The notes: generated by a model from the letters alone, not told the origin. 19,061 bases of DNA from Promethearchaeota archaeon (GCA_048939465.1 JBHLPL010000029.1:1-19061), one strand, 5' to 3'. Shown: positions 284 to 17,552, numbered from the stretch's first letter. Translations and numbers: made by a program.

Positions 284-338
284 AATCCTATCTTATCGGT
301 ATTTTAAGTATCGAATCTCTCTAGAACATATGTTCTGA
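284..338 (+). repeat. Intergenic repeat copy 1 (tail B, palindromic)
   Basis: AATCCTATCTTATCGGTATTTT-AAGTATCGAAT-CTCTCTAGAACATATGTTCTGA. The palindrome AGAACATATGTTCT is at 323-336. Confidence 0.8.
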
Positions 339-392
339 CTTTAGGACCCCAAGGATTATGGATCTGGTCCAAACAGGAAAGCCTACCCTACC

Positions 393-707
393 TTAGACCC
401 AGCCTTCCTTTTTCAGTATGTTCATCGAGACTCTGTTGCTCGGCCCATCTCCTCTTGCAACGGAGACACCGACGTTCTCCCCAACAGCTTCCTTTATTTC
501 TGCGACATCTTTATGGGTGAATCCGGGGCAAAGAAGGATGGAATGTATGCCTTCCTCTTTCAGAAGTCTCTCTGATGCATTAATGGCTTCTGCTTGGCTT
601 TTTACAAGCCTTATGAATAGTCTGAACTTGGATGTTCCAACCTGCCACTTATGATTCTCAGGATCTGCATCCGGGGTGTGGGCGATGAAAGCTACCTTGA
701 ATACCAT
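393..707 (-). CDS. Small conserved hypothetical protein, DUF6506-like
   Basis: 104-aa ORF with an LLCPGF motif and C-terminal VARGDGPS. GAGGAG sits 9 nt upstream of the ATG at 707, so 707 is preferred over the TTG at 716. Family call is from memory. Confidence 0.7.
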   Translation of the reverse strand: MVFKVAFIAHTPDADPENHKWQVGTSKFRLFIRLVKSQAEAINASERLLKEEGIHSILLCPGFTHKDVAEIKEAVGENVGVSVARGDGPSNRVSMNILKKEGWV

Positions 708-790
708 ATTATTCAACTCCTCACGTGCTTTTTGGCTGCCATAGCCTTAATCTTACGGAATATTAAGGTCGCATCTGTTATAAGATTTCA

Positions 791-845
791 TGAAGAAGAT
801 TGAAGGTGTTTTGAAAATTGAATTCCTTCATAACATTTGCTCTAA
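791..845 (+). repeat. Intergenic repeat copy 2 (degenerate, tail B-like)
   Basis: GGTGTTTT-GAAAATTGAAT-TCCTTCATAACATTTGCTCTAA (805-845) has the same 41-nt spacing as copy 1. The left block has diverged. Confidence 0.55.
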
Positions 846-888
846 CAGAAGGGAATAGATCTAGAACATACTCTGATGTTATCACCTA

Positions 889-1836
889 CTAATAGTCAGA
901 AGCAGGAACAAAATCGCCCTGTTTTATCCTTCTTATTTCTTTCAGTTTCTCAACATACCTCTTAATAGACTCTATTTCAACAATTGAGCTCTTCTCTGCA
1001 GGAATCGAGAGTTGTTTAACCTCATAGCCTTTGTCCGCTATGTATTTTTTGGGAATCTCATATTCTATACCCAAATCTATGCACATCGATGGAGCCCAAA
1101 TCTTCGTCATTACTGCAGTTCCCATGTGGTGTATAAGACACTGAACTACTGAAACAGATAGCACCTTATCCAAGGGAATCTCCCAGTTCTCCTCTTTTTC
1201 CTCCTTCTTGTATCGGAACTTGAATTTTATCAACCTTTGAGATGTAACAAGTAGACCTCCATCTTCGGACGAGAAAATAATAGAGTAATGGACCCACTCA
1301 TCTGGACCAAGCAATTCCCTAGCCTCAACAGGTAGGGCCATTCTGAGTTTCTCTTGTTCAAGACAAAGTTCTACTCTTTGCTCATTAGGAACCCTGTAGT
1401 CACCTGAATCATCTTTTATTAGATACAGTCCGCAGTAATAGCATCGTAACTGCTCTTTTCCAGTAATAAAAGAACCACAGTAGGGACATCTATTGTGTTT
1501 TAAAAAATACGAGGCTTCTTCAACACCGAAATTCGCCTCAAAAGCCAACCTGATTCTCTCTTTTTCACGTTCCAGATACTCTGCTTCAAGTAAGGGCCCT
1601 TCTTTATCCCACCAAGCTTCGAATTCCTTCTCGTTCAGAGTGAGATAGACCTTCTTTCCCTTGATTTTGTCGATCATATTCCTGGGGAGTATGAATGATC
1701 CGCTTCGTCCAACATAATGGGAGGAAACCGTGGCAAGAATTTCATTTCCTAAAATCTCTCTGACCACACCTAGCTTCTTGTTATCAGAACTTCGGACTTC
1801 TGAATATTTCTCTGTTAACTTGGATATCTCATCCAT
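889..1836 (-). CDS. Hypothetical protein with a central zinc ribbon and a C-terminal bacterial PH-like domain
   Basis: CPYCG...CYYCG double CxxC, and GLLVTSQRLIKF...WEIPLDKVLSVSV, which resembles bPH domains. GGAGGGGG RBS precedes the ATG at 1836 (the ORF track starts at 1875). Confidence 0.75.
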   Translation of the reverse strand: MDEISKLTEKYSEVRSSDNKKLGVVREILGNEILATVSSHYVGRSGSFILPRNMIDKIKGKKVYLTLNEKEFEAWWDKEGPLLEAEYLEREKERIRLAFEANFGVEEASYFLKHNRCPYCGSFITGKEQLRCYYCGLYLIKDDSGDYRVPNEQRVELCLEQEKLRMALPVEARELLGPDEWVHYSIIFSSEDGGLLVTSQRLIKFKFRYKKEEKEENWEIPLDKVLSVSVVQCLIHHMGTAVMTKIWAPSMCIDLGIEYEIPKKYIADKGYEVKQLSIPAEKSSIVEIESIKRYVEKLKEIRRIKQGDFVPASDY

Positions 1837-1933
1837 CAAAATCCCCCTCCAGTAACTCCGTAAAGATAGTGACAAAACGATTTAATATAATTTGCCTTGC
1901 CAGAATCAGAAACGGCAATAGCCATACGATCAC

Positions 1934-1967
1934 AGATTCTCGTTTTTTTCGTTTTAATAATCTGAAT
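1934..1967 (+). repeat. Intergenic repeat copy 3 (partial/degenerate)
   Basis: GTTTT-AATAATCTGAAT (1951-1967) preceded by a T-rich block; no tail. It lies between divergent genes. Confidence 0.4.
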
Positions 1968-1975: not shown

Positions 1976-2425
1976 ATGCAGTGCAAGAATATTCAATTGA
2001 GTGGACAAGAAAGATTGTCCCTTAAGGCGATCAGAGTGTCTCCAAAATGCTCGTGGTGTGGAAAAAAGGGAGAGAATGTTATCCACGAAAAGTTGAGTTT
2101 CAGAGGGGCGGCTGAGGAAGCGTTTTTCTGTAATCTGGATCACTTAGAAAAAACACGAGAGTTCCTAAAATACGCCGAGTCTCATTTCTGGCATTTTATA
2201 ATGAGCATAATAGTACTTCCCGTTATTGGTATGTTAATTACATTTACGATCCTGGAAAATGTAGGTCTGCTAATTATCTTTGGAGGATTGGGTCTGACAA
2301 TCATAGTATTCCCATTTGCAACCCCCCAAACAAACAGTCTATTAGGATTCAAGAACGCAATTCGACTCATTAGAATAATCGGAGTGGCTTTAGCAGGTGC
2401 AGGGATAATTCTGCTTTTACTATGA
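1976..2425 (+). CDS. Membrane protein with an N-terminal TRASH/YHS-like metal-binding motif
   Basis: CSWCG...FFCNLDH followed by about 3 hydrophobic helices and FPFATPQT. The true start may be downstream. Confidence 0.7.
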   Translation: MQCKNIQLSGQERLSLKAIRVSPKCSWCGKKGENVIHEKLSFRGAAEEAFFCNLDHLEKTREFLKYAESHFWHFIMSIIVLPVIGMLITFTILENVGLLIIFGGLGLTIIVFPFATPQTNSLLGFKNAIRLIRIIGVALAGAGIILLLL

Positions 2426-2426: not shown

Positions 2427-2472
2427 AATCTTTTTCGCGGCTTTTTTAGTGATGGCATGAAAACTGATTTGA
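2427..2472 (+). repeat. Intergenic repeat copy 4 (tail A)
   Basis: AATCTTTTTCGCGGCTTTTTT-AGTGATGGCAT-GAAAACTGATTTGA; begins 1 nt after the TGA at 2425. Confidence 0.65.
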
Positions 2473-2532: not shown

Positions 2533-3036
2533 ATGGCAGGATTTCGTTTTCATTATGCAGAGTTGCTCCTGTTATCCAGCACGATTATCGGAGTCCTCAT
2601 CCCCTTTTTCGGTCCTTTGACTGTATGTCTCCGTCTGGCTATATGGGATAGTTGGACTGTAATATCTGTTATGACACCTCTGACCATAATGAATATTCTT
2701 ATAGGGATTTCATGGCCCCCTCTCATTGCTGTAAGCATTACTAGGTTCCCCGAGGGACATTCAGAGCCAACCGCCCGACTAGGTCTGAGAAGACTGATAT
2801 ATTTTATTCTTCTGGTGGCCGCAATAATCCTCTTCTGGCCAGTACTTATCCGTGCATTACCAAACCTACCGGTTGGTACCAGATACATATATATACCTGA
2901 ATTCGAAGGGGGACTGATAAGGCCTTCGGCAGGAGTAAGCATAAGCTTGATCTATTTCTTCTATATCCTGATCGCTAACATCTCAGTCTGGAGTTTTGGA
3001 CATTTCAAAAGACTAAGAATAGCAAATCCTCCATAA
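2533..3036 (+). CDS. Hypothetical membrane protein (about 4 TM)
   Basis: 167-aa ORF, GGGGAG RBS, four hydrophobic segments. Confidence 0.75.
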   Translation: MAGFRFHYAELLLLSSTIIGVLIPFFGPLTVCLRLAIWDSWTVISVMTPLTIMNILIGISWPPLIAVSITRFPEGHSEPTARLGLRRLIYFILLVAAIILFWPVLIRALPNLPVGTRYIYIPEFEGGLIRPSAGVSISLIYFFYILIANISVWSFGHFKRLRIANPP

Positions 3037-3042: not shown

Positions 3043-3106
3043 AACCCTGTTTTGCGGGTGTTCTAATAACAGGATTTATTCCTGAACCTTTTGGAACACA
3101 TGTTAC
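3043..3106 (+). repeat. Intergenic repeat copy 5 (tail B-like)
   Basis: AACCCTGTTTTGCGGGTGTTCT-AATAACAGGAT-TTATTCCTGAAC..., followed by GAACACATGTTA at 3094-3105. Confidence 0.75.
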
Positions 3107-3241
3107 ATATGGCTAAACTCTTCTTTCGAGTGTTCCTTTTGGAACGGAAGACTTAAGTGTCTCACAGATTGGAGTACTTTATGAAGGAGTGATTCCTGCA
3201 CCAAGGCATATGTGCCAAATGACGGGGAGGGATATGGAAGG

Positions 3242-4036
3242 ATGGGGGAGAGTGAATTTACGGAAGGTGCTGTTAGTCAATTACTTTTCGTGATCGGTGC
3301 TGCTCTGACGATTATTGTCTCCCTCGTCGTACCTATTATTGCCCCAATTACTGGTCTTTATGAGACTTACATTGCTATTACATCAATCTTTGCATTGCGT
3401 CCAATAGATATTGACTGGCACTCTCCCTTAAGAGATCTTGATGGTCGACCATACTGGGCCAGCAAAATCCTTTTGCCATCAATTGTTGGAATTATCAATT
3501 CTGGGATTCTTCTTGTTTCGATCGTACTGTTAGTCAGGTCTGTCACTGGAGTGACTAAAAGATTCAATCCGAGCGATACGGGCAGGGCCACTACCAAATC
3601 CCTAATCGCTGTGGCCACTTTTGCAACAGTAATGGGCATGGTTTCTTCAGTGTTATTTCCCTCACTGATAATATATTCCTTCCGAGAGCATACAGGAGGA
3701 ATAATACCTGAAATGCCGCCTTTTAGTTACGATCTTAACATCATGGGCTGGGCTCTACTTATTCTTGAAGTGTTTTCCGGGGGACTAATGATACTGTTGG
3801 TCGGAATCCTATTTCTAGCGTATCGGAATTGCCTCGAGACCAACAGGCTCTGGTATGAAACCGGAATAATCTACATTCTAGCAGGGTTTTTCTTAATAGC
3901 TGGAACATTCTGTTTCTCTATGTTATTATCGCCCATCGGTTTGGTATTGACGATTATAGCCGGAATTGCTGGGACAGCGGGCTTTGCCATAACCAAAACC
4001 TCGACGGAGAAAGAATTAGAAGGCCTACAGATGTGA
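3242..4036 (+). CDS. Multi-pass membrane protein, DUF996/DUF973-like, paralog 1
   Basis: 5-6 TM segments; LVGILFLAYRN...LWYETGIIYILAG. The ATG at 3242 follows G-rich RBS-like sequence (the ORF track uses GTG 3212). Confidence 0.75.
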   Translation: MGESEFTEGAVSQLLFVIGAALTIIVSLVVPIIAPITGLYETYIAITSIFALRPIDIDWHSPLRDLDGRPYWASKILLPSIVGIINSGILLVSIVLLVRSVTGVTKRFNPSDTGRATTKSLIAVATFATVMGMVSSVLFPSLIIYSFREHTGGIIPEMPPFSYDLNIMGWALLILEVFSGGLMILLVGILFLAYRNCLETNRLWYETGIIYILAGFFLIAGTFCFSMLLSPIGLVLTIIAGIAGTAGFAITKTSTEKELEGLQM

Positions 4037-4058: not shown

Positions 4059-4113
4059 GATCTTGTCTCTGTGCTATCTTAATGATTGGATTTCTCTCAG
4101 AACAAATGTTCCA
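4059..4113 (+). repeat. Intergenic repeat copy 6 (tail B)
   Basis: GATCTTGTCTCTGTGCTATCTT-AATGATTGGAT-TTCTCTCAGAACAAATGTTCCA; GAAC-N4-GTTC at 4100-4111. Confidence 0.75.
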
Positions 4114-4205: not shown

Positions 4206-5258
4206 ATGGATGGGGGACAACGTCTAGTCGGGCTACTAGGTCAAGTTCTCATTATAATCAGTGCTATCGTGACGATCATTTTTTCACTCGTAATGTTCTT
4301 TCCTATTCCACCCGATTCCCCCCTGCTATTCTCCATTATTCAAACACCGCCCTTTGGTCTCCCCATAATAGATTTTTACTACTATTATACCCCTTATTGG
4401 GACGTAGTAAGGGGCTGCAGTTTTAGGTATCCTGAAGAAGACTGGTTCAACTTGACTTCCGGATCTTCCTTCATCGGAATTCTTAATTCTTCGATCTTTT
4501 TCATTTCTATAATACTTGTGATAATCTCTGTTTACAGAACAGCCCAGGGATCAGGTGGGAATTCTGGAACCACAGTCAAAGCCAGAAATCTATTCATAGC
4601 TACTTTAACTTTTGCTTTATTCGCTTATTTCTTAAGTATCCTATCTCACGTGTTCTCGATGGGTATGGTTACTTATTCTTACGAACGTGTAGGATTCCTT
4701 GCAGGATTTCCAAAAGCATCATCGATCACCCATATTTACCTAAACAGTTTTGGCTGGATTCTCCTAATCTTACAGAACACTTTTGGAGTGATGATGATGG
4801 TTCTAGTTGGCGTATTCTTCAAAGCAATAGCCTCCGAAATACAAAAAAGCAGTCAACAAACCAGAAGGCTTTGGTCTGTTATAGGAAAAACATACGTAAT
4901 GTTAGGTGGAACAATAGCCTTCACTATTTTTATAACCCTTGCACAGGCAAACATGACATTCTTGGTGCCAATAATGCTAATTGTCTCAGGAGTTGTAGGA
5001 GCAACCGGCTTCATCAAATTCAAACCCACAATGTTCCCAATAATGACAGGCACGAGCGGATCTATGAGGAATACACCGGGATCGGTTATTGAAGCAGTCT
5101 ACGACACGGAGGCTTCATCAAAAGAAATTGAACTAGAAGTGCTTAAGAATGAAGGATACAAATTTGTGATAATCTCCGAAATCAAGTGTGTGAACTGCAG
5201 TTACGAGAATCCGATTGATGCTGAATTCTGCGTAAGATGCGGTCAGCGCTTGAAATAG
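4206..5258 (+). CDS. Multi-pass membrane protein, DUF996-like paralog 2, with a C-terminal double zinc ribbon
   Basis: AAGGGGG RBS; about 6 TM segments; LVGVFFKA...LWSVIGKTYVMLG; ends in CVNCSYENPIDAEFCVRCG. Confidence 0.8.
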   Translation: MDGGQRLVGLLGQVLIIISAIVTIIFSLVMFFPIPPDSPLLFSIIQTPPFGLPIIDFYYYYTPYWDVVRGCSFRYPEEDWFNLTSGSSFIGILNSSIFFISIILVIISVYRTAQGSGGNSGTTVKARNLFIATLTFALFAYFLSILSHVFSMGMVTYSYERVGFLAGFPKASSITHIYLNSFGWILLILQNTFGVMMMVLVGVFFKAIASEIQKSSQQTRRLWSVIGKTYVMLGGTIAFTIFITLAQANMTFLVPIMLIVSGVVGATGFIKFKPTMFPIMTGTSGSMRNTPGSVIEAVYDTEASSKEIELEVLKNEGYKFVIISEIKCVNCSYENPIDAEFCVRCGQRLK

Positions 5259-5275: not shown

Positions 5276-5326
5276 CATCTTATTTTGCTAGTGTTTTAAT
5301 AATCGGATGAAAATTAATCCAGAAGC
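5276..5326 (+). repeat. Intergenic repeat copy 7 (tail A)
   Basis: CATCTTATTTTGCTAGTGTTTT-AATAATCGGAT-GAAAATTAATCCAGAAGC. Confidence 0.85.
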
Positions 5327-5455: not shown

Positions 5456-5932
5456 ATGCTTGGGAGAGTGAGGCGTTTGGTAACAGTCAGAAAAGCAAGA
5501 GTAGAGGATTTGGATGCCATAAACGAGCTGACCGACATAATGCACAGACATATGGCAAATCCCTACAGGTTAGAGTTGTCAAAGGAGGAGCTTGAAGAAG
5601 AACACTTCGGTGAAGGAGAGCTGGAGAATACATACGTCGCAGAGAGCGCAGGAAACGTTTTCGGATATATTTCGTTCTCTAAGGGAAAGAATGAGTGGGC
5701 GGGTCCCTACTATGAAATTGAGCATATTGTGGTCGCCGAAAAACACAGGAGGCAGCGTATCGGAAAAGGACTCTTCAACATCGTTCTTGAGAAAGCCAAA
5801 AGAGAGAAGGTAAACATCACAGCGGGGACGCTTGCGAAAAATCAGGGGGCGCTAAGATTCTATGAAGAACTCGGCTTCAAACCTCTGTCCATAGGCCTTC
5901 TGCTCGACATTCAGAAAAGGATACCAGAGTAG
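5456..5932 (+). CDS. GNAT family N-acetyltransferase
   Basis: Motif A IVVAEKHRRQRIGKGL and motif B NQGALRFYEELGF. The start may be the TTG at 5477. Confidence 0.9.
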   Translation: MLGRVRRLVTVRKARVEDLDAINELTDIMHRHMANPYRLELSKEELEEEHFGEGELENTYVAESAGNVFGYISFSKGKNEWAGPYYEIEHIVVAEKHRRQRIGKGLFNIVLEKAKREKVNITAGTLAKNQGALRFYEELGFKPLSIGLLLDIQKRIPE

Positions 5933-5973: not shown

Positions 5974-6024
5974 AATCTCTTTTTTGCTGGTGTTTTAGTA
6001 ATTGGATGAAAGCTATTTCAAGAC
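5974..6024 (+). repeat. Intergenic repeat copy 8 (tail A)
   Basis: AATCTCTTTTTTGCTGGTGTTTT-AGTAATTGGAT-GAAAGCTATTTCAAGAC; between convergent genes. Confidence 0.85.
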
Positions 6025-6080: not shown

Positions 6081-6476
6081 TCAGTATCGAGCCACATCAT
6101 CTGTTACATCCAAGTCTCGACCGCACCTTATGCAAAAATCAGCATCCGCAGGGTTCTTGTAACCGCAATCAGGACATGAAAGCACAGCTGTTTCTGATCC
6201 AACATCTTCGGGTGTTGTTTCTTCACGATGGGTTGGGCTGGTGATGGAGTCAACCATAGGTTCAATTGCTTGCGTTCCTCTTGATGAAGACCAATAAATA
6301 CCGAAGACTGCCAAACCTGCAAGGACGAATAATATTAAGAACATGGAGACAATTAGGAAAATCCCCCCACGTAATCGCCCAATTCCCCCAAGTGCAAAAA
6401 ATGCCAATAGGAAGAGCACAAGTATGGCACAAATGGCACTGCTGCTCCTTTTATCGCGTGTACTCAGACTCCCCAT
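6081..6476 (-). CDS. Membrane protein (2 TM) with a C-terminal double zinc ribbon
   Basis: Two hydrophobic helices, an acidic linker and CPDCGYKNPADADFCIRCG. Confidence 0.85.
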   Translation of the reverse strand: MGSLSTRDKRSSSAICAILVLFLLAFFALGGIGRLRGGIFLIVSMFLILFVLAGLAVFGIYWSSSRGTQAIEPMVDSITSPTHREETTPEDVGSETAVLSCPDCGYKNPADADFCIRCGRDLDVTDDVARY

Positions 6477-6521: not shown

Positions 6522-6554
6522 AATCTTGTTTTGCTGGTATTTTGATAATCGGAT
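6522..6554 (+). repeat. Intergenic repeat copy 9 (core only, no tail)
   Basis: AATCTTGTTTTGCTGGTATTTT-GATAATCGGAT. The last base is shared with the stop codon of the 6554-7060 gene. Confidence 0.85.
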
Positions 6555-7060
6555 TAGTCAATTACCACGAATGGTATCGGCTGCACTACCAAAGTGTATC
6601 CCTCTCCAAATAACCCGAAGGATGAACTACCGGTTACTGTATATGTGCCCGGCGTGCTTGGAGTCCAATTCAAGGTTTGCTGTGTTGACTGATAGGGACC
6701 GAGTGTGATATTAGACACATACATAAGATAACACGGATGATCCTGAGACCATTTGTAGATGATTGTGCCGTGGGCGTTTCTGATCAAAAAGTCAAAGAGA
6801 TCACTACATGGAAACCACAACTCAATTGCCCTTTCGGCAGTGTTTGTTAGAATGAAGGTTACACCCATAACCTCTCCTGCCGTATGCTGATTCGCAGCGA
6901 TCTCAACCCTTAAGCTTACAGGAGGGGCAAAAGTGGGTTCGGACCGAAGGTGTCGCCAAAGTATGTAGGCCACTGGGGGGGTGGCTACAATCACGATTAT
7001 TAGAGCCGCAATTCCTATCATTGTTCCCTTTTCCATTCCTATGGCCCTTCTGGAAGTCAT
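6554..7060 (-). CDS. Membrane-anchored BsuPI-like (intracellular proteinase inhibitor/Ig-like) domain protein
   Basis: N-terminal TM helix, then FDFLIRNAHGTIIYKWS...LGPYQS...LNW...PGTYTV, typical of BsuPI-like domains. The start may be the ATG at 7036. Confidence 0.7.
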   Translation of the reverse strand: MTSRRAIGMEKGTMIGIAALIIVIVATPPVAYILWRHLRSEPTFAPPVSLRVEIAANQHTAGEVMGVTFILTNTAERAIELWFPCSDLFDFLIRNAHGTIIYKWSQDHPCYLMYVSNITLGPYQSTQQTLNWTPSTPGTYTVTGSSSFGLFGEGYTLVVQPIPFVVID

Positions 7061-7149: not shown

Positions 7150-7189
7150 AATCTTGTCTTGTGGTGTTTCAACAATCGAATGAAAACTA
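7150..7189 (+). repeat. Intergenic repeat copy 10 (tail A, truncated)
   Basis: AATCTTGTCTTGTGGTGTTTC-AACAATCGAAT-GAAAACTA. The terminal CTA is the TAG stop of the 7187-7636 gene. Confidence 0.8.
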
Positions 7190-7636
7190 CAGGCCTTGCT
7201 CGATGCTGCGACCGCATCCTACGCAGAATCGTGCGTCACGCGGATTTACACAACCACAGTAAGAACACACGAGTTTAAAGGTAGAGACCGGTACGAATCG
7301 TCTTGCTCTTTTTCTACGTAGTAGTTTCCCTAAAGACTCCTTAACAGATTTTAGACGTCTATCAGAGTACGCCTTGACAGCCATTGATTCAGGAATTCTC
7401 TTCCGAAATTCTCTTATCTTCTTGACACAAAATCTTAATGCCAGGAATACTCCAGGAATCTCTGATCTCTTCTTTCCAGACCGCTTAATATATATAATTA
7501 GAAAATTCGCCATAGACACATAATTCCTGAGGCTTTCACGGGCAGCCCCTGCCTCCCATTCATAACCTAGCCCATCAAGGTATTTGGGTGTTTTGCGCCT
7601 TTTCAGTTCCATAATCCTTACCGTCTGGTTCTCCAT
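7187..7636 (-). CDS. Basic hypothetical protein with a C-terminal double zinc ribbon
   Basis: 149-aa Lys/Arg-rich ORF ending in CSYCGCVNPRDARFCVGCG. Confidence 0.75.
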   Translation of the reverse strand: MENQTVRIMELKRRKTPKYLDGLGYEWEAGAARESLRNYVSMANFLIIYIKRSGKKRSEIPGVFLALRFCVKKIREFRKRIPESMAVKAYSDRRLKSVKESLGKLLRRKRARRFVPVSTFKLVCSYCGCVNPRDARFCVGCGRSIEQGL

Positions 7637-7800: not shown

Positions 7801-7856
7801 GATCCTATTTTGATGGTGTTGTAATAATTGGATGAGGAACGTGTTTAGGAGCTTCT
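7801..7856 (+). repeat. Intergenic repeat copy 11 (tail A)
   Basis: GATCCTATTTTGATGGTGTTGT-AATAATTGGAT-GAGGAACGTGTTTAGGAGCTTCT. Confidence 0.8.
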
Positions 7857-7936: not shown

Positions 7937-8515
7937 TCAATCAAATTCCAACGGATCCCCGTATACCTCGGAATAGCAAAATTCTTGAAGACCTTTTCTT
8001 GGTCTGGGCAGAGGCTCTTCGTCAGGAATCCCTATCGCAACTAGAACGATAATGTCCATGTGTTCCGGTATCTTCAACGTCCTCTTAACCTCATCAACCC
8101 ACTCTCTTGGGCGCGACTCATAGTTGGCAATCCAGCAGGTTCCATAACCCAACGCAGACGCTGCCAACACTATATGTTCGGTAGCAATCATAGGATCCCG
8201 AGTAGCCCACGTCGCTCGGGCGCAGCACGAAACACCGGAATCGCCAAGCACCACAAAAATGGCGTTGGCGTCTTTGATGAAAGTCTGAGTGGAAGGTCTC
8301 GCAAGAAGATTTTTGGTCTTTCGATCAGTTACAACTATGAATCGCCATGGTTGATCGTTGTTAGCGGATGGCGCAAGTCGGGCAGCTTCAAGGATTTTCT
8401 TCAAGTCTTTCTTCGGAATGTCATACTCCTTGTATTTTCGGATGGATCTTCTCTTCTCAACTAGCTGAAAGAAATTTCTTGCAATATCCAGTTTTTTCTC
8501 AACCACTCTTACCAT
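7937..8515 (-). CDS. Nitroreductase family flavoprotein
   Basis: KRRSIRKY, ARLAPSANNDQPWRFIVV, LAASALGYGTCWI and IVLVAIGIP are hallmark FMN-dependent nitroreductase motifs. Confidence 0.95.
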   Translation of the reverse strand: MVRVVEKKLDIARNFFQLVEKRRSIRKYKEYDIPKKDLKKILEAARLAPSANNDQPWRFIVVTDRKTKNLLARPSTQTFIKDANAIFVVLGDSGVSCCARATWATRDPMIATEHIVLAASALGYGTCWIANYESRPREWVDEVKRTLKIPEHMDIIVLVAIGIPDEEPLPRPRKGLQEFCYSEVYGDPLEFD

Positions 8516-8552
8516 CTCTTATTTATTGGGCGTCCTATATATTGCAAGGAAA

Positions 8553-9427: not shown

Positions 9428-9480
9428 GATCTGCTGGCTAAATGAACTGAATAATCGAATGAAGACTAACCTTAGATCTT
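9428..9480 (+). repeat. Intergenic repeat copy 12 (tail A, left block diverged)
   Basis: GATCTG...(22-nt block)-AATAATCGAAT-GAAGACTAACCTTAGATCTT; spacing identical to the consensus. Confidence 0.6.
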
Positions 9481-9609: not shown

Positions 9610-10263
9610 ATGCCGAGTATTAAAGTAGATAAAATGGATATCAATGGTTATATTGCTTACCCAGAGAATAAAGATGGTGATGGTATACTTGTTTTGCACG
9701 CTTGGTGGGGATTAAATGAATTTATCAAACAGTTCTCTGAGAGGCTAGCAGGAGAAGGGTTTTTGGTGCTAGCACCGGATCTTTACAAGGGAAAAATAGC
9801 AGATAGCATTACAGATGCAGAAAATTATAGCAACAATTTAGACCCGAGAGAAATTAGTCCCATCTTGGAAAATTCGGTTGATTTTCTCTTGAAACATCCG
9901 AATTGCAAAAGTTCCAAACTCAGTGTTATTGGATTTTCTTTGGGAGCTGGCTGGGCTACGTGGTTGGCCAATAACAAATCAAAAGAAATCGAGAAAGTAG
10001 TTCTTTTCTATGGTACTGGAGATGTTGATTTTTCTAACACTCTTGCTTCCTTCCAGTGCCACTTCGCTGAAAATGATCCTTATGAAGAAACAGAATATGT
10101 CAACTATTTCAAAGAGAGACTTCAAGAAGCGAACGTAAAGGCTAGTCATTATACTTATCCAGGTACAAGTCACTGGTTTTTTGAGACGAATCAGGTTAAA
10201 TATTTTCATGAAGAAGCTTCAAAATTAGCTTGGAAAAGAACTCTAGAGTTTTTGAAAAAGTGA
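9610..10263 (+). CDS. Dienelactone hydrolase family (alpha/beta hydrolase)
   Basis: HAWWGLN, LAPDLY, nucleophile elbow GFSLG, AENDP and YPGTSHWF. Confidence 0.9.
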   Translation: MPSIKVDKMDINGYIAYPENKDGDGILVLHAWWGLNEFIKQFSERLAGEGFLVLAPDLYKGKIADSITDAENYSNNLDPREISPILENSVDFLLKHPNCKSSKLSVIGFSLGAGWATWLANNKSKEIEKVVLFYGTGDVDFSNTLASFQCHFAENDPYEETEYVNYFKERLQEANVKASHYTYPGTSHWFFETNQVKYFHEEASKLAWKRTLEFLKK

Positions 10264-10354: not shown

Positions 10355-10409
10355 AACCTTGCTTTGCTGGTGTTTTAATGATTGGATGGGGGGTAATCTA
10401 AGAGCTTCT
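10355..10409 (+). repeat. Intergenic repeat copy 13 (tail A)
   Basis: AACCTTGCTTTGCTGGTGTTTT-AATGATTGGAT-GGGGGGTAATCTAAGAGCTTCT. Confidence 0.85.
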
Positions 10410-10569: not shown

Positions 10570-11058
10570 TCATCCAATCTCTTCCTTCCCCAAGGAACTC
10601 CTCCTTCCATTTATCAAATAGGCCAGTACTATTACGTTCATAGCCGGCACAATCACATACAATAGGAGCTTTGCAGGTAGCGAGTTCGTCGAATAGAGAG
10701 GATAGAGTATTAAGCCTATTGTGCTGGAAGGAAATACCACCGCAATCGCTATCCAAAATCCTAAATAAGGGACCAATATCATTATTGCTTTATCCCATGC
10801 CCAGATAGGTCTCTTGATAAGACCGATACCTAACAAAATGATGCATATTCCCCAGATGACTGAAAAGACGTCATAGCCTAGAGTTATTTCAAGAGGTACA
10901 TAAGGGTACATGTGTCCTCCGCCTGCAGCAGCAAAGTCGAATAGTCCGGCAACGACTGACAGTGTGCCGGATGCTATCATAAATAGGCCCAGAATCAAAT
11001 TCAAAGATTCTGATCTCTTGGAATTGGAACTCAGCCGAGGCTCCCCCTCTTCATTCAT
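10570..11058 (-). CDS. Hypothetical membrane protein (about 4 TM)
   Basis: 162-aa ORF with four hydrophobic segments, including G.GL.KR..WAW. Confidence 0.8.
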   Translation of the reverse strand: MNEEGEPRLSSNSKRSESLNLILGLFMIASGTLSVVAGLFDFAAAGGGHMYPYVPLEITLGYDVFSVIWGICIILLGIGLIKRPIWAWDKAIMILVPYLGFWIAIAVVFPSSTIGLILYPLYSTNSLPAKLLLYVIVPAMNVIVLAYLINGRRSSLGKEEIG

Positions 11059-11087: not shown

Positions 11088-11145
11088 AATATTGTTTTCG
11101 CTGGCTTTTTAATAATCGGGTTTTCTTCTAGAACATATGTTCTAA
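11088..11145 (+). repeat. Intergenic repeat copy 14 (tail B)
   Basis: AATATTGTTTTCGCTGGCTTTTT-AATAATCGGGT-TTTCTTCTAGAACATATGTTCTAA; 16-bp palindrome TAGAACATATGTTCTA at 11129-11144. Confidence 0.85.
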
Positions 11146-11219: not shown

Positions 11220-11822
11220 TTACCCCTTGGGTCTGCTTACAAAAAAGCACACCGTCCCTTCAATACTCCCAACCACAATGGCCACAAGACTAACTATCCA
11301 AAGAGCAATCTTGTACCAATCTAAGGAAATTATTAAGCAAGCCCAAGCAGAGTACGTTATCAAGTATGTTATTCCGGCAATCATATAGATTATTCCAGTG
11401 GTAATCCAAAATGGTTCATAAACGAAATACCTACGATATGCTAGGAAAAATATGCCAATTAAGGTCGCCGTTCCCCCTATGGTAACCGCTGGCATAATCA
11501 GAAACAGATAAAGATAATACCGCCAGATATTATAACCGACTATTGGGTATATGATTTGTGCAACTATATAGAGTACCAAGGCAATTGTGCCGGTAATTAA
11601 TCCGAATATTGCTCCAATCCTACCTATTGGTGAACCGCTGAATCTGCGAGATATTTCTCTGATTGAAATCAAGTACAGTATAGCGGAGATAAGAAAGACT
11701 ATTTGAGCGGCAATGCCGAACAACAATAGGAGTTCCCACATCCAAGAGAAGAACAACAAAAAAGCTGAAACCATAAGGAATATCTGACTGATGCCAGCCT
11801 GAAAAAGCTCTTTTTCAACCAA
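11220..11822 (-). CDS. Multi-pass membrane protein, DUF996-like paralog 3
   Basis: About 6 TM segments; LIGIFFLAYRR...FWITTGIIYMIAG; G-rich RBS before the TTG. Confidence 0.8.
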   Translation of the reverse strand: MVEKELFQAGISQIFLMVSAFLLFFSWMWELLLLFGIAAQIVFLISAILYLISIREISRRFSGSPIGRIGAIFGLITGTIALVLYIVAQIIYPIVGYNIWRYYLYLFLIMPAVTIGGTATLIGIFFLAYRRYFVYEPFWITTGIIYMIAGITYLITYSAWACLIISLDWYKIALWIVSLVAIVVGSIEGTVCFFVSRPKG

Positions 11823-12007: not shown

Positions 12008-12063
12008 AATCTTGTTTTGCTGATGTTTTAGTAGTTTGATTTCTTTTAGAACATATGTTCTGA
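12008..12063 (+). repeat. Intergenic repeat copy 15 (tail B)
   Basis: AATCTTGTTTTGCTGATGTTTT-AGTAGTTTGAT-TTCTTTTAGAACATATGTTCTGA; between divergent genes. Confidence 0.9.
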
Positions 12064-12187
12064 TATTAGATTCGATTTGCCAAAATAAAACCTAAAGAGG
12101 GTTTGACGGGTCTAAATCGATCAGTATAAGAAATAATACGCTATTAATGAAATGTGTAGAAAAAGCTACACAAACGTGGTGTCACAG

Positions 12188-12658
12188 ATGATAATAAGAC
12201 GGATGGAAGATAAGGATTATGAGGCCTTCAAAGGCCTTTTTGAAGAGGCTTACGGTGAATACTTGAAATCCCTGAAAGAAAGAGACCCCCAGAAATATCA
12301 AAAAGAACTAAAAGAAGAAAGAAAAGTAACCCGCGAACGATTTGAATTTTACCTTGAAACCGGAAGCAGCTTCGTTGCCGAAGATGGTGAGGTTATCGGC
12401 TATGTGGTCAGTCAAACACTGAATTTTGTGCGCGGGTTTGACAGGTTGCTTTGGATTGAGTACGTAGTCGTTAAGAAGAAGCTTCGGAGACGAGGAATAG
12501 GGCTTGCACTTCTACGTAAGCTCACAGAATATGCCAGACGATCAAATGTAGATCGAATATATACAACAATTAATCCAGACAATGTGGCCTCCATAAGACT
12601 GCATCTGAAGGCCGGCTTTGATGTCAAGAACTGGAGAACTGCTTCTTACACAGCATAA
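12188..12658 (+). CDS. GNAT family N-acetyltransferase
   Basis: WIEYVVVKKKLRRRGIGLALL and NVASIRLHLKAGF. GTGGTG RBS favours the ATG at 12188 over 12152. Confidence 0.9.
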   Translation: MIIRRMEDKDYEAFKGLFEEAYGEYLKSLKERDPQKYQKELKEERKVTRERFEFYLETGSSFVAEDGEVIGYVVSQTLNFVRGFDRLLWIEYVVVKKKLRRRGIGLALLRKLTEYARRSNVDRIYTTINPDNVASIRLHLKAGFDVKNWRTASYTA

Positions 12659-12676: not shown

Positions 12677-12730
12677 AATCTTGTTCTGTCGGTGTTCTAA
12701 TTCTTGGATGAAAACTAATCTAAGAACTCA
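12677..12730 (+). repeat. Intergenic repeat copy 16 (tail A)
   Basis: AATCTTGTTCTGTCGGTGTTCT-AATTCTTGGAT-GAAAACTAATCTAAGAACTCA. Confidence 0.9.
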
Positions 12731-12733: not shown

Positions 12734-12904
12734 TCAAGAAGAATGCCAAAAAGGTTCGTCTAGCCACGAACTCTCTTCTTCCTCATAACAATCAACACAT
12801 AGATCATCAAAAGCTATGCAGGCTGGGCAGACCGATCTTCCGCAGATCGAGCACTCTACCAGATCCTCTTCATCGCAATCTAGACCACAGATCTCACATT
12901 CCAA
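12734..12904 (-). CDS. 56-aa Cys-rich acidic zinc-finger-like small protein (not in the ORF track)
   Basis: AGGTGG RBS 7 nt upstream of TTG 12904; MECEICGLDCDEEDLVECSICGRSVCPACIAFDDLCVDCYEEEESSWLDEPFWHSS, with four CxxC pairs. It fills the gap between repeat copies 16 and 17. Confidence 0.8.
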   Translation of the reverse strand: MECEICGLDCDEEDLVECSICGRSVCPACIAFDDLCVDCYEEEESSWLDEPFWHSS

Positions 12905-12932: not shown

Positions 12933-12984
12933 ATGATTTGCACCGTGGAGTTTTAATGGTTTTCTTGTTGCCTAATCTAAGAGC
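12933..12984 (+). repeat. Intergenic repeat copy 17 (degenerate, tail A)
   Basis: GGAGTTTTAATG (from 12947) ... CTAATCTAAGAGC (12972-12984); spacing within 1 nt of the consensus. Confidence 0.55.
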
Positions 12985-13197: not shown

Positions 13198-15063
13198 TCA
13201 CTTCTTTGACAAGATAACGACTGATTCATATCTAATCATCCCTTCTCTTGTTTTCTCAAGTTCTCTTGTTATCACTCTATCCTTGGTAAGAGCTATATCC
13301 TCATCTTTAGCCATTTCCCAGATTACCTTGTCATTTTTTACCTCCACATAGTTCGAATCTAGCTTGTAATGATTATTTCCAATGATTATTACGCATTTGG
13401 CCTCTCTTTTCATCACCCTACTCATTTCTTTGAGAGTTAGACGTATATCTTTGAAGAATTTGTAAGTTCTCATGGCAGCGTTTCTCCTTCCACCATTCAA
13501 GAGATTAAGAATAATGGCCCTAGCAGTCTCAGGGAGCTGTTGAAAATCGTCCTTTCTCTTCTTAATTTCGTCTATCAATTCACGCGGGTAGTGTCTTAAG
13601 TTGGGATTTCCTACCATGTTTTCATGCAATTTCTCCAATGAAGGGACGAGATCAAGTAATGTAAGTTGAGGATAGTCATTTTTGATGTAGTCCAATGCCG
13701 TGGAGTATGGAGGAGAGTTAACTATAGCGTCAATCGTTTCTGTTTTTATTCCGATATCCTCATTATTCCATTTTTTGCAGCTGTTCCTCATGTCTCTTGT
13801 ATCGCCAATGTATGTTTCTGATTTTCCAAGACGAATCTTGAGAACCTCATTGAGTTTATGGAAAAGGTATATTCTTAGGTAAAGATTCCTGAGTCTTCCT
13901 TCTAAAACATCAACGAATTCTGCCCTTCTTCTTCTAGTTAAGTCGCTTATTGTCCCACTTAAGCCTAAAAGAAGGAAGTTCTTAATCTGTTCCTCAGGAA
14001 TTGATTTTGCTATTTCATGTGCAACAAGAATCTTTTTGATATCGCCCTCTTTGTAAAATAGCTTAATCATCTTATCAGGCATTTTTTTGCTTCGAGCAGT
14101 TATTTCTTTGTAGTTATACTCAGATTCTACAAGTAATGAATCTCCTTTAGATTGGCGTTCCAGACACAAGATAGCAGCGTTTACTCTCTTCAGGAAACTC
14201 TCTATTTTCCTCCGCAAGAGTGACGTATCCAAAAATAATGAATGACACTTTACATTTGACATCAAAACTGATAACGGGTTTATCTCGATTCCTATACTGT
14301 CTAGCCCCAAAAGTGAAGCTTCAACTAATAAAGTTCCGCTCCCCGCAAAATTGTCCATTATAAGACCTTGATCATTTGGAAAGACATAATTCAGTAGTGC
14401 TCGAACCATTTTTGGATGGAATTTTCCTTTATAGGGATGCATATAATGTGTAAGGTAAAGGGAGGGTTCCTCTCTAATGGCAAAATAGTCCTCAAGACGC
14501 TTTCCTATCGCCATTGTCGAGGACGCAGGAATCCTATAGAGTCTATTCGTTAAAAAATCAAAGAGTGAATTTACATTCCTATCAACTTCTTCTTCGTTCC
14601 TGCTCAGCTTTGAAATGTACTGTGATTTTTCAAGAAAGTATTGATGTACAATAAACCTGAAGAGGATGTGGTTCCCACTTTTGAAGTATTGCACATTTTT
14701 GCCCAGGATACCTTCCGGAAAAATCTTATTAAGCAGTCTCTCCGGGTCTTCGCTACTTTTTATTACTTGGAAGAACTCTCGAGTGTAAGCAAGCTTTCGT
14801 ACAAGGTTCGAGACATTTTGGATCTCCTCGGTTGTTCCATAAAATCCATGAAATTCTCCATAAGGCAGCTCATGTGTAAGAATGTCCTGAATACGTATAT
14901 TATCAGTTGTAAAAAGCTTAAGCGGCTCTTCATTCATTACATCTACGAAATTCCTTACTCTTCCTGTTTTACCAAACAGACTTGTTAGTTCTAGTTCAGC
15001 GAAATCTACTTCATGTTTCTCCTTTATACTGTTGGAAAGCTTGAAGTAATAATGGACGGCCAT
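13198..15063 (-). CDS. Amino-DNA methyltransferase, probably N4-cytosine, alpha motif order, with a long N-terminal extension
   Basis: HPYKGKFHP, motif I DNFAGSGTLLVEA and a later motif IV NSPPY. About 200 extra N-terminal residues. The start is ATG 15063 or TTG 15069. Confidence 0.85.
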   Translation of the reverse strand: MAVHYYFKLSNSIKEKHEVDFAELELTSLFGKTGRVRNFVDVMNEEPLKLFTTDNIRIQDILTHELPYGEFHGFYGTTEEIQNVSNLVRKLAYTREFFQVIKSSEDPERLLNKIFPEGILGKNVQYFKSGNHILFRFIVHQYFLEKSQYISKLSRNEEEVDRNVNSLFDFLTNRLYRIPASSTMAIGKRLEDYFAIREEPSLYLTHYMHPYKGKFHPKMVRALLNYVFPNDQGLIMDNFAGSGTLLVEASLLGLDSIGIEINPLSVLMSNVKCHSLFLDTSLLRRKIESFLKRVNAAILCLERQSKGDSLLVESEYNYKEITARSKKMPDKMIKLFYKEGDIKKILVAHEIAKSIPEEQIKNFLLLGLSGTISDLTRRRRAEFVDVLEGRLRNLYLRIYLFHKLNEVLKIRLGKSETYIGDTRDMRNSCKKWNNEDIGIKTETIDAIVNSPPYSTALDYIKNDYPQLTLLDLVPSLEKLHENMVGNPNLRHYPRELIDEIKKRKDDFQQLPETARAIILNLLNGGRRNAAMRTYKFFKDIRLTLKEMSRVMKREAKCVIIIGNNHYKLDSNYVEVKNDKVIWEMAKDEDIALTKDRVITRELEKTREGMIRYESVVILSKK

Positions 15064-15323
15064 TTCCAAGGTTCACCAAACAGCTCTTCCTGTTGAATCT
15101 CAACCCTTTTTACTCCTTATTTATGATGAAGAATATTTAAACACTGTTGAGCTAGCTAAAATAAGAATGATGTTTAATCGAAAAAGAGACCGATAGATTT
15201 GTGTTCCTATGACAGGCCTTCTCCGATTTTCTGCTTTATCAGCCGCGTCTTCGCTTGAAAGACCACCCTGCCGTTATCCTCGCATTGCCAGCACGGTTCT
15301 TTTTCCTAAGAATTGAAACCCAA

Positions 15324-16169
15324 TTAATCTTCGACAAATGAGTTTAGTCTTTTAGTTTGGCTCTTCATGGTCTCGGTTGTCTCACTCAGTAAGGGAAACG
15401 CCTCCAATGCCTTTTTCATACTTAACGCTGCGATTCCTGGAGGCGGTCTAGCAAATGACCCTGCAAATCTTGCTAATGATGCACGTTTGAGAAGTACCGC
15501 TGTCAAATGCGCAAATGTCAGAAGCGTATTCCGTCTGCCGTATGCTTGGTTTACGGTATCATAGCCCAGTGTGGAATATTTCACATCTTCATTCAACGCA
15601 ATTACATCCGTAAAATACAGGAGAACATCCAGCGGTATTTCTCCGACTTCAGGAACTAGCATTCTGATTCTGTCGATAACAACCGTCGGTGGACTGAGTC
15701 TCCATATCCCAGGTTCAGTTTCCTTGTGGTCGAGCATAAAGGCATTACGAACTAAGAGACTGCCCATCAGCTCTAATGCAAACTCGCTTTTCTTGCCCAT
15801 TTCCAACAAAAGGCCAAACATATCTTCAAAAGTAAGGCTTCGCCTAAGTCTGTTTTGACCGAGAAAAATCACAGGAAACATATCGTTTGGATTGTTTGTT
15901 TGTACGCCGTCTTTTGTGGTGCATTGTTTGTAATCTGGGGCGGCTTCTTTTCCCGGTTTTCCAAGACAAACCTTGTTTTCGCCAATAACATATAAGTTTT
16001 GATAGGTCTTTGAGGATTGACTGAGACCCTTTGGCCATGATTTGGCTTCTTCTATGCTCTGCTTTCTGCGTGGAGCAGAGAACTTATTCAGTCTGAGCTC
16101 AGATGGGATTTTAAGTGCGTCTCGTATCTTTCGCTTAATTAAATTGTTCGCGGGTTGCTCATTAATCAC
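15324..16169 (-). CDS. Hypothetical protein, putative restriction endonuclease partner of the methyltransferase
   Basis: 281-aa soluble ORF directly upstream of and co-oriented with the MTase, with no repeat between them; possible D-x-K in NEDVKY. Function is inferred from context only. Confidence 0.55.
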   Translation of the reverse strand: MINEQPANNLIKRKIRDALKIPSELRLNKFSAPRRKQSIEEAKSWPKGLSQSSKTYQNLYVIGENKVCLGKPGKEAAPDYKQCTTKDGVQTNNPNDMFPVIFLGQNRLRRSLTFEDMFGLLLEMGKKSEFALELMGSLLVRNAFMLDHKETEPGIWRLSPPTVVIDRIRMLVPEVGEIPLDVLLYFTDVIALNEDVKYSTLGYDTVNQAYGRRNTLLTFAHLTAVLLKRASLARFAGSFARPPPGIAALSMKKALEAFPLLSETTETMKSQTKRLNSFVED

Positions 16170-16268
16170 GACTCCCCCCCAACGTTTTTATTCCTTAAAC
16201 ACTAGTTTTGGTTGATGCCTGTAACTATGAGTTTTTCCTATATGAAACAAACTCTTTTAAAACAAAAG

Positions 16269-16323
16269 AATCTTATTTTGTGGCGTTTTAATACTTGGAT
16301 TTCTTTTAGAACGTATGTTCTAA
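16269..16323 (+). repeat. Intergenic repeat copy 18 (tail B)
   Basis: AATCTTATTTTGTGGCGTTTT-AATACTTGGAT-TTCTTTTAGAACGTATGTTCTAA; between divergent genes. Confidence 0.9.
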
Positions 16324-16505
16324 TGACTGAGACCCATTTTGCTTTCCAAATCCTCCGGTCCACAAACATCAAAATCGTTATAAACAGTTACAACAAAACA
16401 TCACGCCAGGGGGGGTTAGTGCCACCACATGCTGCCCCCTCTTCGTAGTTATCAGAAAGAAAAAATAACTCCGTTCTCCCATAATGAAATCAAGGGGGAC
16501 TCTCA

Positions 16506-17477
16506 ATGAAAGCTGTTGTTTACCGCGGGCCGAAAAAAATGAAACCTGAGGACGTACCGGAGCCTGAACCAGCTCAAAATGAGGTCTTGGTGAGGTTTAA
16601 GGCTGGCAGCATTTGTGGTACTGATATTCACTATTATAGAGGTGAGTGGAAGAGTCTAAAGATAGGAAGAATAATAGGGCATGATGCTTCGGGGCAGATT
16701 ATGGAGACGGCTCAAAGAGCGGCAATTGTCCCTTTTGTATCCTGTGGAGCCTGTAGATACTGCCTAGAGGGAAGACCCAATGTGTGTGAGAAATGGAGCA
16801 TAATGGGCTTCAACAGAGACGGATGCTTCTCTGAATTAATAGCAGTGCCGAGAGAGAATCTGCTTCCAATACCTAACAACGTCACTTACGAAGAGGCAGC
16901 GATACTTGAGCCAGTCGCCCTTGCGCTTCACACTTTTGACCTGCTTCAGCCAAGGTTTGGGCAATGGGCAACGATAGTGGGGCAAGGGCCCATAGGGCTT
17001 GTTATGACACAGGTAGCGAGAGCTTCAGGGTGCAGAGTCATTGCTATAGATTTAGAAGATTACCGATTAGCAATATCTGAGAATTATGGAGCAGAGGTAT
17101 GCATTAATCCAAAGAGTCAGAACGTTGTGGAAAAAGTGAGAACGATTACCGACGGGGGCTCGGGCATCGTTGTTGAAGCCGCCGGCAAAAAGGAAACTGT
17201 AGAACAGACTTCCAAATTAGTGAGTCGGACAGGAAAAGTAGCGCTGGTAGGTGAATCTTCAGGCACAATGAAATTCGAAGGTGAAGCGACTTTCTTCGGC
17301 GTATGGCTTAATCCCCTGAAATATGCTCTTGCGCTGGATTCGCTGTCAAAGGGAATCATAGATGTTAGAGGTTTGATTACTCATAGATTTCCTCTGACTG
17401 ATTTCGAGAGGGCGATTGAGACAGCCACCGACACTGAAAAGAGTCCTGTAAAGGTGATTCTTCAAGAGGAGCATTAG
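16506..17477 (+). CDS. Zinc-dependent medium-chain alcohol dehydrogenase (threonine/sorbitol dehydrogenase-like)
   Basis: ICGTD, GHD, structural Zn site CGACRYCLEGRPNVC, LEP and Rossmann GQGPIG; AAGGGGG RBS. Confidence 0.93.
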   Translation: MKAVVYRGPKKMKPEDVPEPEPAQNEVLVRFKAGSICGTDIHYYRGEWKSLKIGRIIGHDASGQIMETAQRAAIVPFVSCGACRYCLEGRPNVCEKWSIMGFNRDGCFSELIAVPRENLLPIPNNVTYEEAAILEPVALALHTFDLLQPRFGQWATIVGQGPIGLVMTQVARASGCRVIAIDLEDYRLAISENYGAEVCINPKSQNVVEKVRTITDGGSGIVVEAAGKKETVEQTSKLVSRTGKVALVGESSGTMKFEGEATFFGVWLNPLKYALALDSLSKGIIDVRGLITHRFPLTDFERAIETATDTEKSPVKVILQEEH

Positions 17478-17498
17478 TCAAAACCAAGAATCTTGAAG

Positions 17499-17552
17499 AA
17501 TCTTGTTTTGCTGGTGTCTTAATAAATGGATAAAAACTGATCTAGGAACTCA
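17499..17552 (+). repeat. Intergenic repeat copy 19 (tail A)
   Basis: AATCTTGTTTTGCTGGTGTCTT-AATAAATGGAT-AAAAACTGATCTAGGAACTCA; preceded by the tandem AAGAATCTTG x2 (17486-17505). Confidence 0.9.

Follow-up and report, generated by a model that had tools for sequence, protein, structure and literature searches.

Gene units delimited by a co-oriented, unstructured 34-bp site in an Asgard archaeon: a candidate cassette array without attC features

Integrons are the only well-understood dedicated system for cassette capture, and they are defined by the integrase IntI and by a folded site, attC. The attC site is an imperfect hairpin of 57-141 nt with R''/L''/L'/R' boxes and AAC...GTT, and crossover takes place at G|TT. 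Short double-stranded sites, with no recombinase gene in the module, are found in the pdif modules of Acinetobacter plasmids and in integrative mobile elements exploiting Xer (IMEX) at dif; there, a host enzyme acts in trans and successive insertion regenerates the site. Archaeal integrons have been reported to be enriched in Asgard genomes, mostly as arrays without integrase in metagenome-assembled genomes (MAGs) (Ghaly et al. 2022, PMC9668308). Here we analyse a 19,061-bp stretch of DNA from Promethearchaeota archaeon (GCA_048939465.1 JBHLPL010000029.1:1-19061), called the window below, in which 19 copies of a site different from attC separate 18 gene units between positions 284 and 17595. 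We consider, with a probability of roughly 0.45, that this region is part of a genus-specific cassette array run in trans by a site-specific recombinase.

The window is the entire contig C58 of its own MAG (G000: 1.96 Mb, 152 contigs, 91% complete, 43% GC). It was compared with the MAGs of the other two species of the genus, G001 and G002, which are 78-82% complete. The host is an Asgard (Hodarchaeota-type) archaeon, because G001 was deposited as Candidatus Hodarchaeota archaeon DZ1B.307, and because genes for a bona fide actin (448 bits with Pfam) and for a topoisomerase IB of eukaryote type are present in G000. This bears out the archaeal origin proposed by a first-pass annotation of the window. 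The topoisomerase IB (589 aa) and actin (395 aa) genes, at G000 C38:15440-19474 (L162 2440-6474), lie a few kb from a solitary weak copy of the site (C38:21015-21074), which is flanked by genes for 497-aa and 370-aa proteins with no PDB, Pfam or paralog match.

Forty-eight copies of the site were gathered from the three genomes, and 47 of them were aligned. The consensus is a 34-nt block, AAATCTTGTTTTGCTGGTGTTTTAATAATYGGAT, in which most columns are 83-96% conserved and indels do not exceed 1-2 nt. In it, KTGTTTT is directly repeated at a distance of 11 bp, and AATAATYGGAT comes next. The first-pass annotation had described a 33-nt core with spacing constant to about 1 nt: the recurrence was confirmed, and the length is corrected to 34 nt. 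All 19 positions that it listed were found again, on the + strand and between genes. In the window, 14-15 copies are significant with an nhmmer profile (E from 7e-8 to 4e-3), and 4-5 are degenerate, those at 791, 1934, 2427, 9428 and 12933; the copy at 1934 reached only E=2 and the others fell under threshold. For three of them, a good copy stands at the corresponding unit boundary in relatives: L022 11351 for 791, L023 5279 and L028 1045 for 1934, and L028 546-521 for 2427. With a strict 22-mer and up to 3 mismatches, 5 matches were obtained in the window, against 0 in 200 shuffles. Core similarity is the same between species as within species (72% vs 72%, permutation p=0.5), which, as judged from these alignments, indicates that selection on a shared consensus maintains the cores, rather than gene conversion or homogenisation within genomes.

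Two classes of tail follow the GGAT. Class A (18 copies) reads TTCTTGT and then a palindrome, TAGAACATATGTTCTA; class B pools the other 30 copies, of which about two thirds carry GAAAACTAATCTAAGAGC. Class B is followed by a gene on the - strand in 20 of 27 cases, and for class A the strands are divided 9 to 8, which is a tendency and no rule. The class A palindrome is also a separate, genome-wide motif, with 23 sites at 1 mismatch or less; 13 of these match perfectly, and 20 lie between genes, mostly at 50-200 nt from a gene start. It occurs in the window at 322-337, 11129-11144, 12047-12062 and 16307-16322, and elsewhere in G000 on C2, C16, C23, C31, C71, C78, C91, C93, C135, C138, C139 (two), C149 and other contigs. 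GAAC-N4-GTTC, which forms its core, is also the Gram-positive LexA (Cheo) box; LexA was rejected as its reader, as no LexA_DNA_bind match was found above cut-off.

Compared with integrons, the window has the same general build: compact, mostly single-gene and unrelated units lie between co-oriented site-like repeats, as in integrons and in clusters of attC sites lacking integrases (CALINs), each unit having most of the site at its 3' end and a short piece of it at its 5' end. The 18 units measure 256-3336 nt and hold one to three genes each, mostly one, so that the modular layout first proposed was recovered. Genes on the + strand have their stop codons 2-42 nt, once 92 nt, ahead of the site, which makes the units compact, and convergent gene ends hold 4 of the 19 sites. 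Several genes without an internal site move together in a nitroreductase/PadR/GNAT block, in a DNA methyltransferase block with a 281-aa protein, and in an ABC transporter pair of G001 and G002. The cargo also resembles that of integrons, with acetyltransferases, restriction-modification (RM) or defence genes, small hydrolases and membrane proteins, and its content varies between close relatives. Pfam supported the cargo calls of the first-pass annotation (GNATs, RM genes, hydrolase, membrane proteins); the window GNATs are one in the nitroreductase/PadR module and three further ones.

The differences from integrons are equally marked. The site is 34 bp long and unstructured, with no R''/L''/L'/R' boxes and no AAC...GTT, and it is as conserved between species as within species. 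Genes lie about evenly on both strands, as noticed at first (about 10 on + and 11 on -), with their own promoters, whereas integron cassettes are promoterless and mostly co-oriented; no common promoter (Pc) is therefore implied. No IntI was found: the only PF00589 proteins in G000 reach 18 and 76 bits, where the TIGR02249 cut-off is 265, and there are none in G001 and G002 (MAGs 78-91% complete). The RNAalifold consensus on 47 copies has 0 pairs and 0 kcal/mol. The only plausible attC stem, AATCTTGTT with AATYGGATT, pairs at 71%, which equals the shuffled mean, and shows no covariation. Twelve bottom-strand single-stranded DNA folds gave -3 to -11 kcal/mol (z from -1.8 to +1.2), which is weak and not unusual. 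A custom scan for RYYYAAC...GTTRRRY returned 0 complementary pairs 40-150 nt apart on either strand, and an Rfam scan of the whole window gave no match at E<=1. Canonical attC was rejected on fold, covariation, bottom-strand folds and box scan, in agreement with the first-pass opinion that these are not attC sites.

Also comparable are the short double-stranded sites of pdif modules and IMEX, which likewise have no recombinase gene in the module. ATTGGAT, in the right part of the core, matches the beginning of the dif arm ATTGGATATAA of Pyrococcus abyssi (PMC2958812), and some class B junctions can be read as an 8-6-8 imperfect dyad. However, the conserved 34-nt block has no dyad, the 8-6-8 arrangement GTTTTAAT-AATTGG-ATGAAAAC being present only in the class B subset with GAAAAC; the 11-6-11 dyad of dif is not general among the copies; and pdif sites alternate in orientation, whereas the sites of the array are all direct. 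No XerA was found either (in G000, the NF040815 scores are at best 79 and 123 bits, and the cut-off is 220; no PF00589 in G001 and G002). Repetitive extragenic palindromes (REP), bacterial interspersed mosaic elements (BIME) and miniature inverted-repeat transposable elements (MITEs) are short conserved intergenic repeats too, but they are dispersed genome-wide, in both orientations and palindromic, whereas the present site is unstructured, keeps one orientation and occurs in arrays only. The accretion of islands at tRNA att sites also gives direct att-core repeats that separate successive insertions in one orientation; here the units are 0.3-3 kb long without integrase, the repeat is not tRNA-derived, and there are dozens of units per genome. 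Palindrome-associated elements derived from IS200/IS605 (PATE) have hairpins in a subterminal position, by which a Y1 TnpA recognises them; this site has no conserved hairpin, and TnpA is found only in G000, with unrelated ends. Clustered regularly interspaced short palindromic repeats (CRISPR) have repeats of 24-48 nt, spacers of 25-70 nt and cas genes; spacing in the window is 256-3336 nt and holds genes, and Cas1 was not found in the three genomes.

A profile scan of G000 placed 14 of the 20 matches with E<0.3 on C58 and the rest mostly on C103, C144 and C147, with solitary weaker copies on C38, C39, C74 and C84. Matches are thus concentrated on 4 of the 152 contigs, with one orientation per contig. 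The even genome-wide spread that the first-pass annotation had considered as the opposite outcome is not the case, and a genome-wide REP-like element was rejected, the matches being confined almost wholly to these four contigs. On every contig with several copies, the significant ones are all on one strand: 14-15 of 15 in the window, 13 of 13 on G001:C33, 5 of 5 on C50 and 3 of 3 on C6. With a sequence-only covariance model, the three species had 23, 35 and 12 matches. With the same model, the sister family (four genomes, of which one is closed) yielded 0-1 match per genome and a single marginal match in all, and a pattern search did not find the motif in 34 further genomes of the phylum. A scan of genome contigs, in which the over-degenerate pattern was swamped by chance matches, showed multiple copies only in the Hodarchaeota MAG, and a metagenome scan gave one 1-kb contig with the motif. 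The same arrays are present on short contigs of other public samples, one of which matches window 5729-7661 at 100% identity.

For many units of the window, homologs exist in G001 or G002, at 67-87% nucleotide identity and in a different order, and shared units always keep their orientation relative to the site in these two genomes. In 24 junction pairs with a homologous flank, the upstream unit alone was shared 16 times, the downstream unit alone 7 times and both once, so that 23 of the 24 were one-sided. Every breakpoint that was directly inspected lay at a site. The gain, loss and re-ordering of units with breakpoints at the repeats, which the first-pass annotation expected of a gene-capture array, are thus seen in G001 and G002, and a conserved gene order without breakpoints at the repeats, which it had set against this, is not the case there. 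In both relatives, the unit for a 149-aa protein is joined straight to a radical-SAM gene via ...GTGTTTTAAT|CTCTTC. G000 has 15 kb of units between these two genes, and the block ends in ...GGTGTCTTAAT|CTCTTAG. Its left breakpoint is core copy 4 (2427..2459, +, degenerate), and its right breakpoint is a geneless mini-unit of 64 nt (17532..17595, +), which ends in a half-site, AGGTGTCTTAAT, at 17584-17595.

The distribution of site variants at the junctions suggests where the exchange takes place. In G001, an additional Zn-ribbon unit stands precisely where the DUF2171 and 149-aa units meet in the window; the DUF2171 unit keeps the rare left-part variant CGTTTTAATA and the 149-aa unit keeps the right part ATYTGAAYCATTTATA, which would therefore place the crossover between TTTTA and AAT at this junction. 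Also in G001, the 167-aa unit comes after the GNAT2 unit, with the switch inside the shared repeat. The junction with the radical-SAM gene and that of the additional Zn-ribbon unit are two independent comparisons, and they point to the same 2-3 nt. When junctions are pooled, identity of the upstream unit reaches the first ~13 nt of the core and that of the downstream unit reaches into the tail, the middle 22 nt being at background identity. An exchange of another kind was seen at L153 (G001:C90) 540-1948, where the homolog of the 350-aa 7-transmembrane (TM) gene (4206-5258) carries the leader of the 274-aa unit (window 3076-3164), with a GTTCC-TTTT-GGAAC palindrome region 91% identical to window 3130-3164. 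The 274-aa and 350-aa units of the window are therefore tandem paralogs, and at least one rearrangement took place inside units, away from the core site.

A cassette array run in trans might work as follows. Each unit consists of one to three genes with their own expression signals, bounded by the co-oriented, unstructured, double-stranded site of ~34 bp. The left part of the site (AAATCTTGTTTTGCTGGTGTTTTAAT) moves with the upstream unit, and the right part (AATYGGAT and the ~20-nt class A or B tail) with the downstream unit. A conservative site-specific recombinase, encoded elsewhere, would cut and rejoin within or beside TTTTAAT^AAT, so that units would be excised as circles carrying one reconstituted site, and the circles re-inserted at any other site in fixed orientation. 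Of this, the site with its clustering and co-orientation, the modular units, the breakpoints at the sites and the lack of attC features are observed, and the enzyme, the circles and the precise point of crossover are inferred. A recombinase acting in trans appears the most economical proposal because of co-orientation, compaction, the separate inheritance of left and right parts, and two junctions that agree on the same 2-3 nt.

Several results weigh against this proposal. The data basis is three fragmented MAGs of one genus. No known recombinase was found on any array contig (Pfam/NCBIfam, ~90 open reading frames (ORFs), three genomes), the ORFs being cargo only: GNATs, radical SAM, HNH, the ABC pair, TIR-TPR, ParB-DUF488, HD, EEP, methyltransferases, HerA and a solo TnpB. 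Whole-genome scans of PF00589, PF00239, PF01797, PF01867, PF00665 and PF01609 (tyrosine, serine, Y1-HUH, Cas1, rve and DDE_Tnp_1 enzymes) gave nothing linked to the arrays, and no match at all in G001 and G002, at their completeness of 78-82%. G000 has two tyrosine recombinases, a tRNA-adjacent integrase at a contig end and another on a site-free contig; ordinary integrative elements sit beside tRNA genes, as the first of these does. Neither circular or excised units nor an empty locus free of the site were seen, and the short public contigs had no terminal overlaps suggesting circles. The core has no clear two-arm dyad of the tyrosine or serine recombinase kind, and the pooled statistic places the crossover only within the 22-nt zone. 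The first-pass proposal of a gene-capture array built by a site-specific recombinase is thus supported in part: as to modular units, clustering, the non-attC nature of the site and the breakpoints, but not as to circles, none of which was seen, nor as to the recombinase or transposase expected beside the arrays, which adjoins none of them.

The main rival is a conserved intergenic element (insulator, terminator or protein-binding site) whose direct repeats undergo RadA-dependent homologous recombination, with no dedicated recombinase. It would fit the lack of a recombinase in or near the arrays, and of all six families in G001 and G002. Deletion or insertion between direct repeats would also give the same left-part and right-part pattern, and the pooled data resolve the crossover to 22 nt only, but two independent junctions give it in the same 2-3 nt. 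As a substrate for homologous recombination, moreover, the copies are poor: they are ~72% identical pairwise, with short runs of perfect identity, and the within-genome homogenisation expected from frequent recombination or gene conversion is missing, the equal core identities between and within species being a mild argument against frequent homologous recombination between copies. An expression role is suggested by the T-rich + strand of the block just behind the ends of + genes, at the distances given above, and by TTTTAATAAT in the core, which could act as a TATA-like element. Such a role leaves unexplained the strict co-orientation whatever the gene strand, and about a fifth of the sites (4/19) lie at convergent gene ends, where no promoter is needed. 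We regard recombination between such repeats as somewhat less likely than the proposal of a site-specific recombinase. If the repeat did no more than serve a co-regulated accessory island as common promoter or operator, with rearrangements incidental, then the TATA-like TTTTAATAAT and the 16-nt palindrome of class A tails, a genome-wide intergenic motif, would find a use; yet site orientation is fixed and gene orientation is not, sites stand at convergent 3' ends, only 18 of 48 junctions have the palindrome, which is separable from the core, and breakpoints coincide with sites. This makes a purely regulatory repeat very improbable.

Improbable as well is that the units are remnants of strand-specific elements moving as single strands or by rolling circle (HUH-type: IS200/IS605, IS91/ISCR or Helitron-like), piled head to tail 3' of a short target in the end of the previous element. 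Such elements typically accrete in tandem and are strictly co-oriented, and G000 has an IS200/IS605 copy on C105 and G001 a solo TnpB beside a site. However, the C105 element ends in GC-rich hairpins that bear no relation to the core, neither core nor flanks have a conserved hairpin, the units carry no transposase, and no Y1 transposase was found in G001 and G002. As to an ordinary integron array without integrase (CALIN) with divergent attC, cargo type and unit sizes fit, and such arrays make up most archaeal integrons in Asgard MAGs, as cited above. The absence of a consensus fold, of covariation, of a RYYYAAC...GTTRRRY pair and of IntI, a 34-nt block shorter than any attC, and genes on both strands make it extremely unlikely.

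Beyond the proposal of a cassette array run in trans, it is tempting, if more tentative, to see here a new gene-capture platform, parallel to integrons in function and independent in evolution, with a linear double-stranded site, a recombinase of an unrecognised or unexpected family acting in trans, and self-expressed cassettes assembled and reshuffled in either orientation. No description of such arrays was found in the literature searched. If true, a second and mechanistically different cassette system would mean that modular gene capture arose more than once, and, in the closest archaeal relatives of eukaryotes, it would offer one definite way in which Asgard genomes could import and turn over accessory genes so heavily. 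A recombinase outside current profiles would also be implied.

We now describe the units in order, all core copies being on the + strand. Core copy 1 (284..316, nhmmer E=0.004, also matched by the sequence-only covariance model) has a class A tail with the palindrome at 322-337. It precedes unit 1, which encodes a DUF6506 protein (393..716, -, Pfam E=6e-22; homologous unit in G001, L022 11397-11803). After the degenerate copy 2 (791..823, seen in sequence) comes unit 2, for a DUF2171/zinc-ribbon protein (889..1875, -, Pfam; homologous unit L023 5806-6875). The left part of the degenerate copy 3 (1934..1966) is the CGTTTTAATA variant, as after the same unit in G001. Unit 3 is the 149-aa protein (1976..2425, +), with a Zn-ribbon and 3 TM segments, whose homologs in L023 and L028 abut the radical-SAM gene. 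Past copy 4, membrane proteins follow one another: the 167-aa 4-TM protein of unit 4 (2533..3036, +), whose L025 homolog instead comes after the GNAT2 unit, copy 5 (3043..3075, E=1e-6), the 274-aa 7-TM protein of unit 5 (3212..4036, +), copy 6 (4059..4091, E=6e-4), and the 350-aa 7-TM protein of unit 6 (4206..5258, +), with a C-terminal zinc ribbon and a homolog on G001:C90.

Copy 7 (5276..5308, E=1e-6) leads to a GNAT acetyltransferase in unit 7 (5456..5932, +, Pfam E=2e-17), and copy 8 (5974..6007, E=3e-6) to the 131-aa membrane zinc-ribbon protein of unit 8 (6081..6476, -, Pfam). Copy 9 (6522..6554, E=5e-7) is followed by a BsuPI-like protease inhibitor, unit 9 (6554..7060, -, Pfam E=5e-13), and copy 10 (7150..7181, E=2e-5) by a 149-aa zinc-ribbon protein, unit 10 (7187..7636, -), the L029 and L154 homologs of which have different upstream units. 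Between copy 11 (7801..7833, E=2e-5) and the degenerate copy 12 (9428..9460, seen in sequence), unit 11 (7937..9411) holds nitroreductase (-), PadR (+) and GNAT (+) genes identified by Pfam, with 84% identity in L023 10636-12056. Unit 12 encodes a dienelactone hydrolase (9610..10263, +, Pfam E=4e-37). After copies 13 (10355..10387, E=7e-8) and 14 (11088..11121, E=0.002) come a 162-aa 4-TM protein, unit 13 (10570..11058, -), and a 200-aa 6-TM protein, unit 14 (11220..11822, -), respectively.

Unit 15, behind copy 15 (12008..12040, E=2e-4), encodes a further GNAT acetyltransferase (12152..12658, +, Pfam E=2e-18), whose L025 homolog has a different downstream unit. Unit 16 (12734..12904, -), between copy 16 (12677..12709, E=1e-5) and the degenerate copy 17 (12933..12965, seen in sequence), was at first thought possibly empty; it encodes an acidic, Cys-rich 56-aa miniprotein with four CxxC-like pairs, and has 81% nucleotide identity to G001 L024 2165-2330. 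Unit 17 (13198..16169, -) combines a 623-aa DNA methyltransferase (Pfam N6_N4_Mtase) and a 281-aa soluble protein, which is probably its restriction partner. Copy 18 (16269..16300, E=3e-5), a zinc-type alcohol dehydrogenase in unit 18 (16506..17477, +, Pfam) and copy 19 (17499..17531, E=2e-6) follow, and then the geneless mini-unit. To its right, 17605..19061 (-) holds the radical-SAM gene and, truncated by the contig end, a gene for a multi-pass membrane protein; the identity to G001 and G002 is 87%, and in G001 a further core comes after them.

Among the cargo, the family of unit 8 is by far the commonest cassette. These proteins of ~130 aa have a membrane segment at the N terminus and a zinc ribbon at the C terminus (DUF7577/DUF7575-like), and at least 8 paralogous units exist in the three genomes, 45-56% identical to one another: besides that of the window, L150 7107-7514 and 8190-8597, L023 5301-5726, and L022 1115-1525, 7210-7611, 12950-13348 and 15747-16122. 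A search of 5.8 billion proteins found the family only in this genus, on short contigs. Radical-SAM proteins of 300-350 aa are also found beside or between cores, including solitary chromosomal sites. There are at least 6 across G000 and G001, with loci at window 17605-18552, G000 C74:14818-15789, L022 1773-2756, L023 3841-4749, and L173 7379-8419 and 18384-19445. Some of them are best matched by the PTO1314 family, below its cut-off. They may be no more than frequent cargo, or may be tied to the site in function. The 366-aa neighbour of the radical-SAM gene was rejected as an enzyme candidate, as it is a multi-pass membrane protein.

The complete IS200/IS605 element of G000 (C105:1108-2840) has TnpA and TnpB and GC-rich hairpin ends unlike the core, and the solo TnpB gene lies in an array unit adjoining a core at L026 (G001:C109) 622-1782. 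Finally, genes of defence type are abundant on array-linked and neighbouring contigs, at L150 (G000 C147) 1-6385, L023 344-2506 and 7219-8751, and L152 41-1492. They include a DCD-domain DNA methylase, a HerA/DUF87 ATPase, GIY-YIG/DUF7664, TIR-TPR, ParB-DUF488 and a retron-effector-like ATPase. Given this richness, the arrays may double as defence islands.

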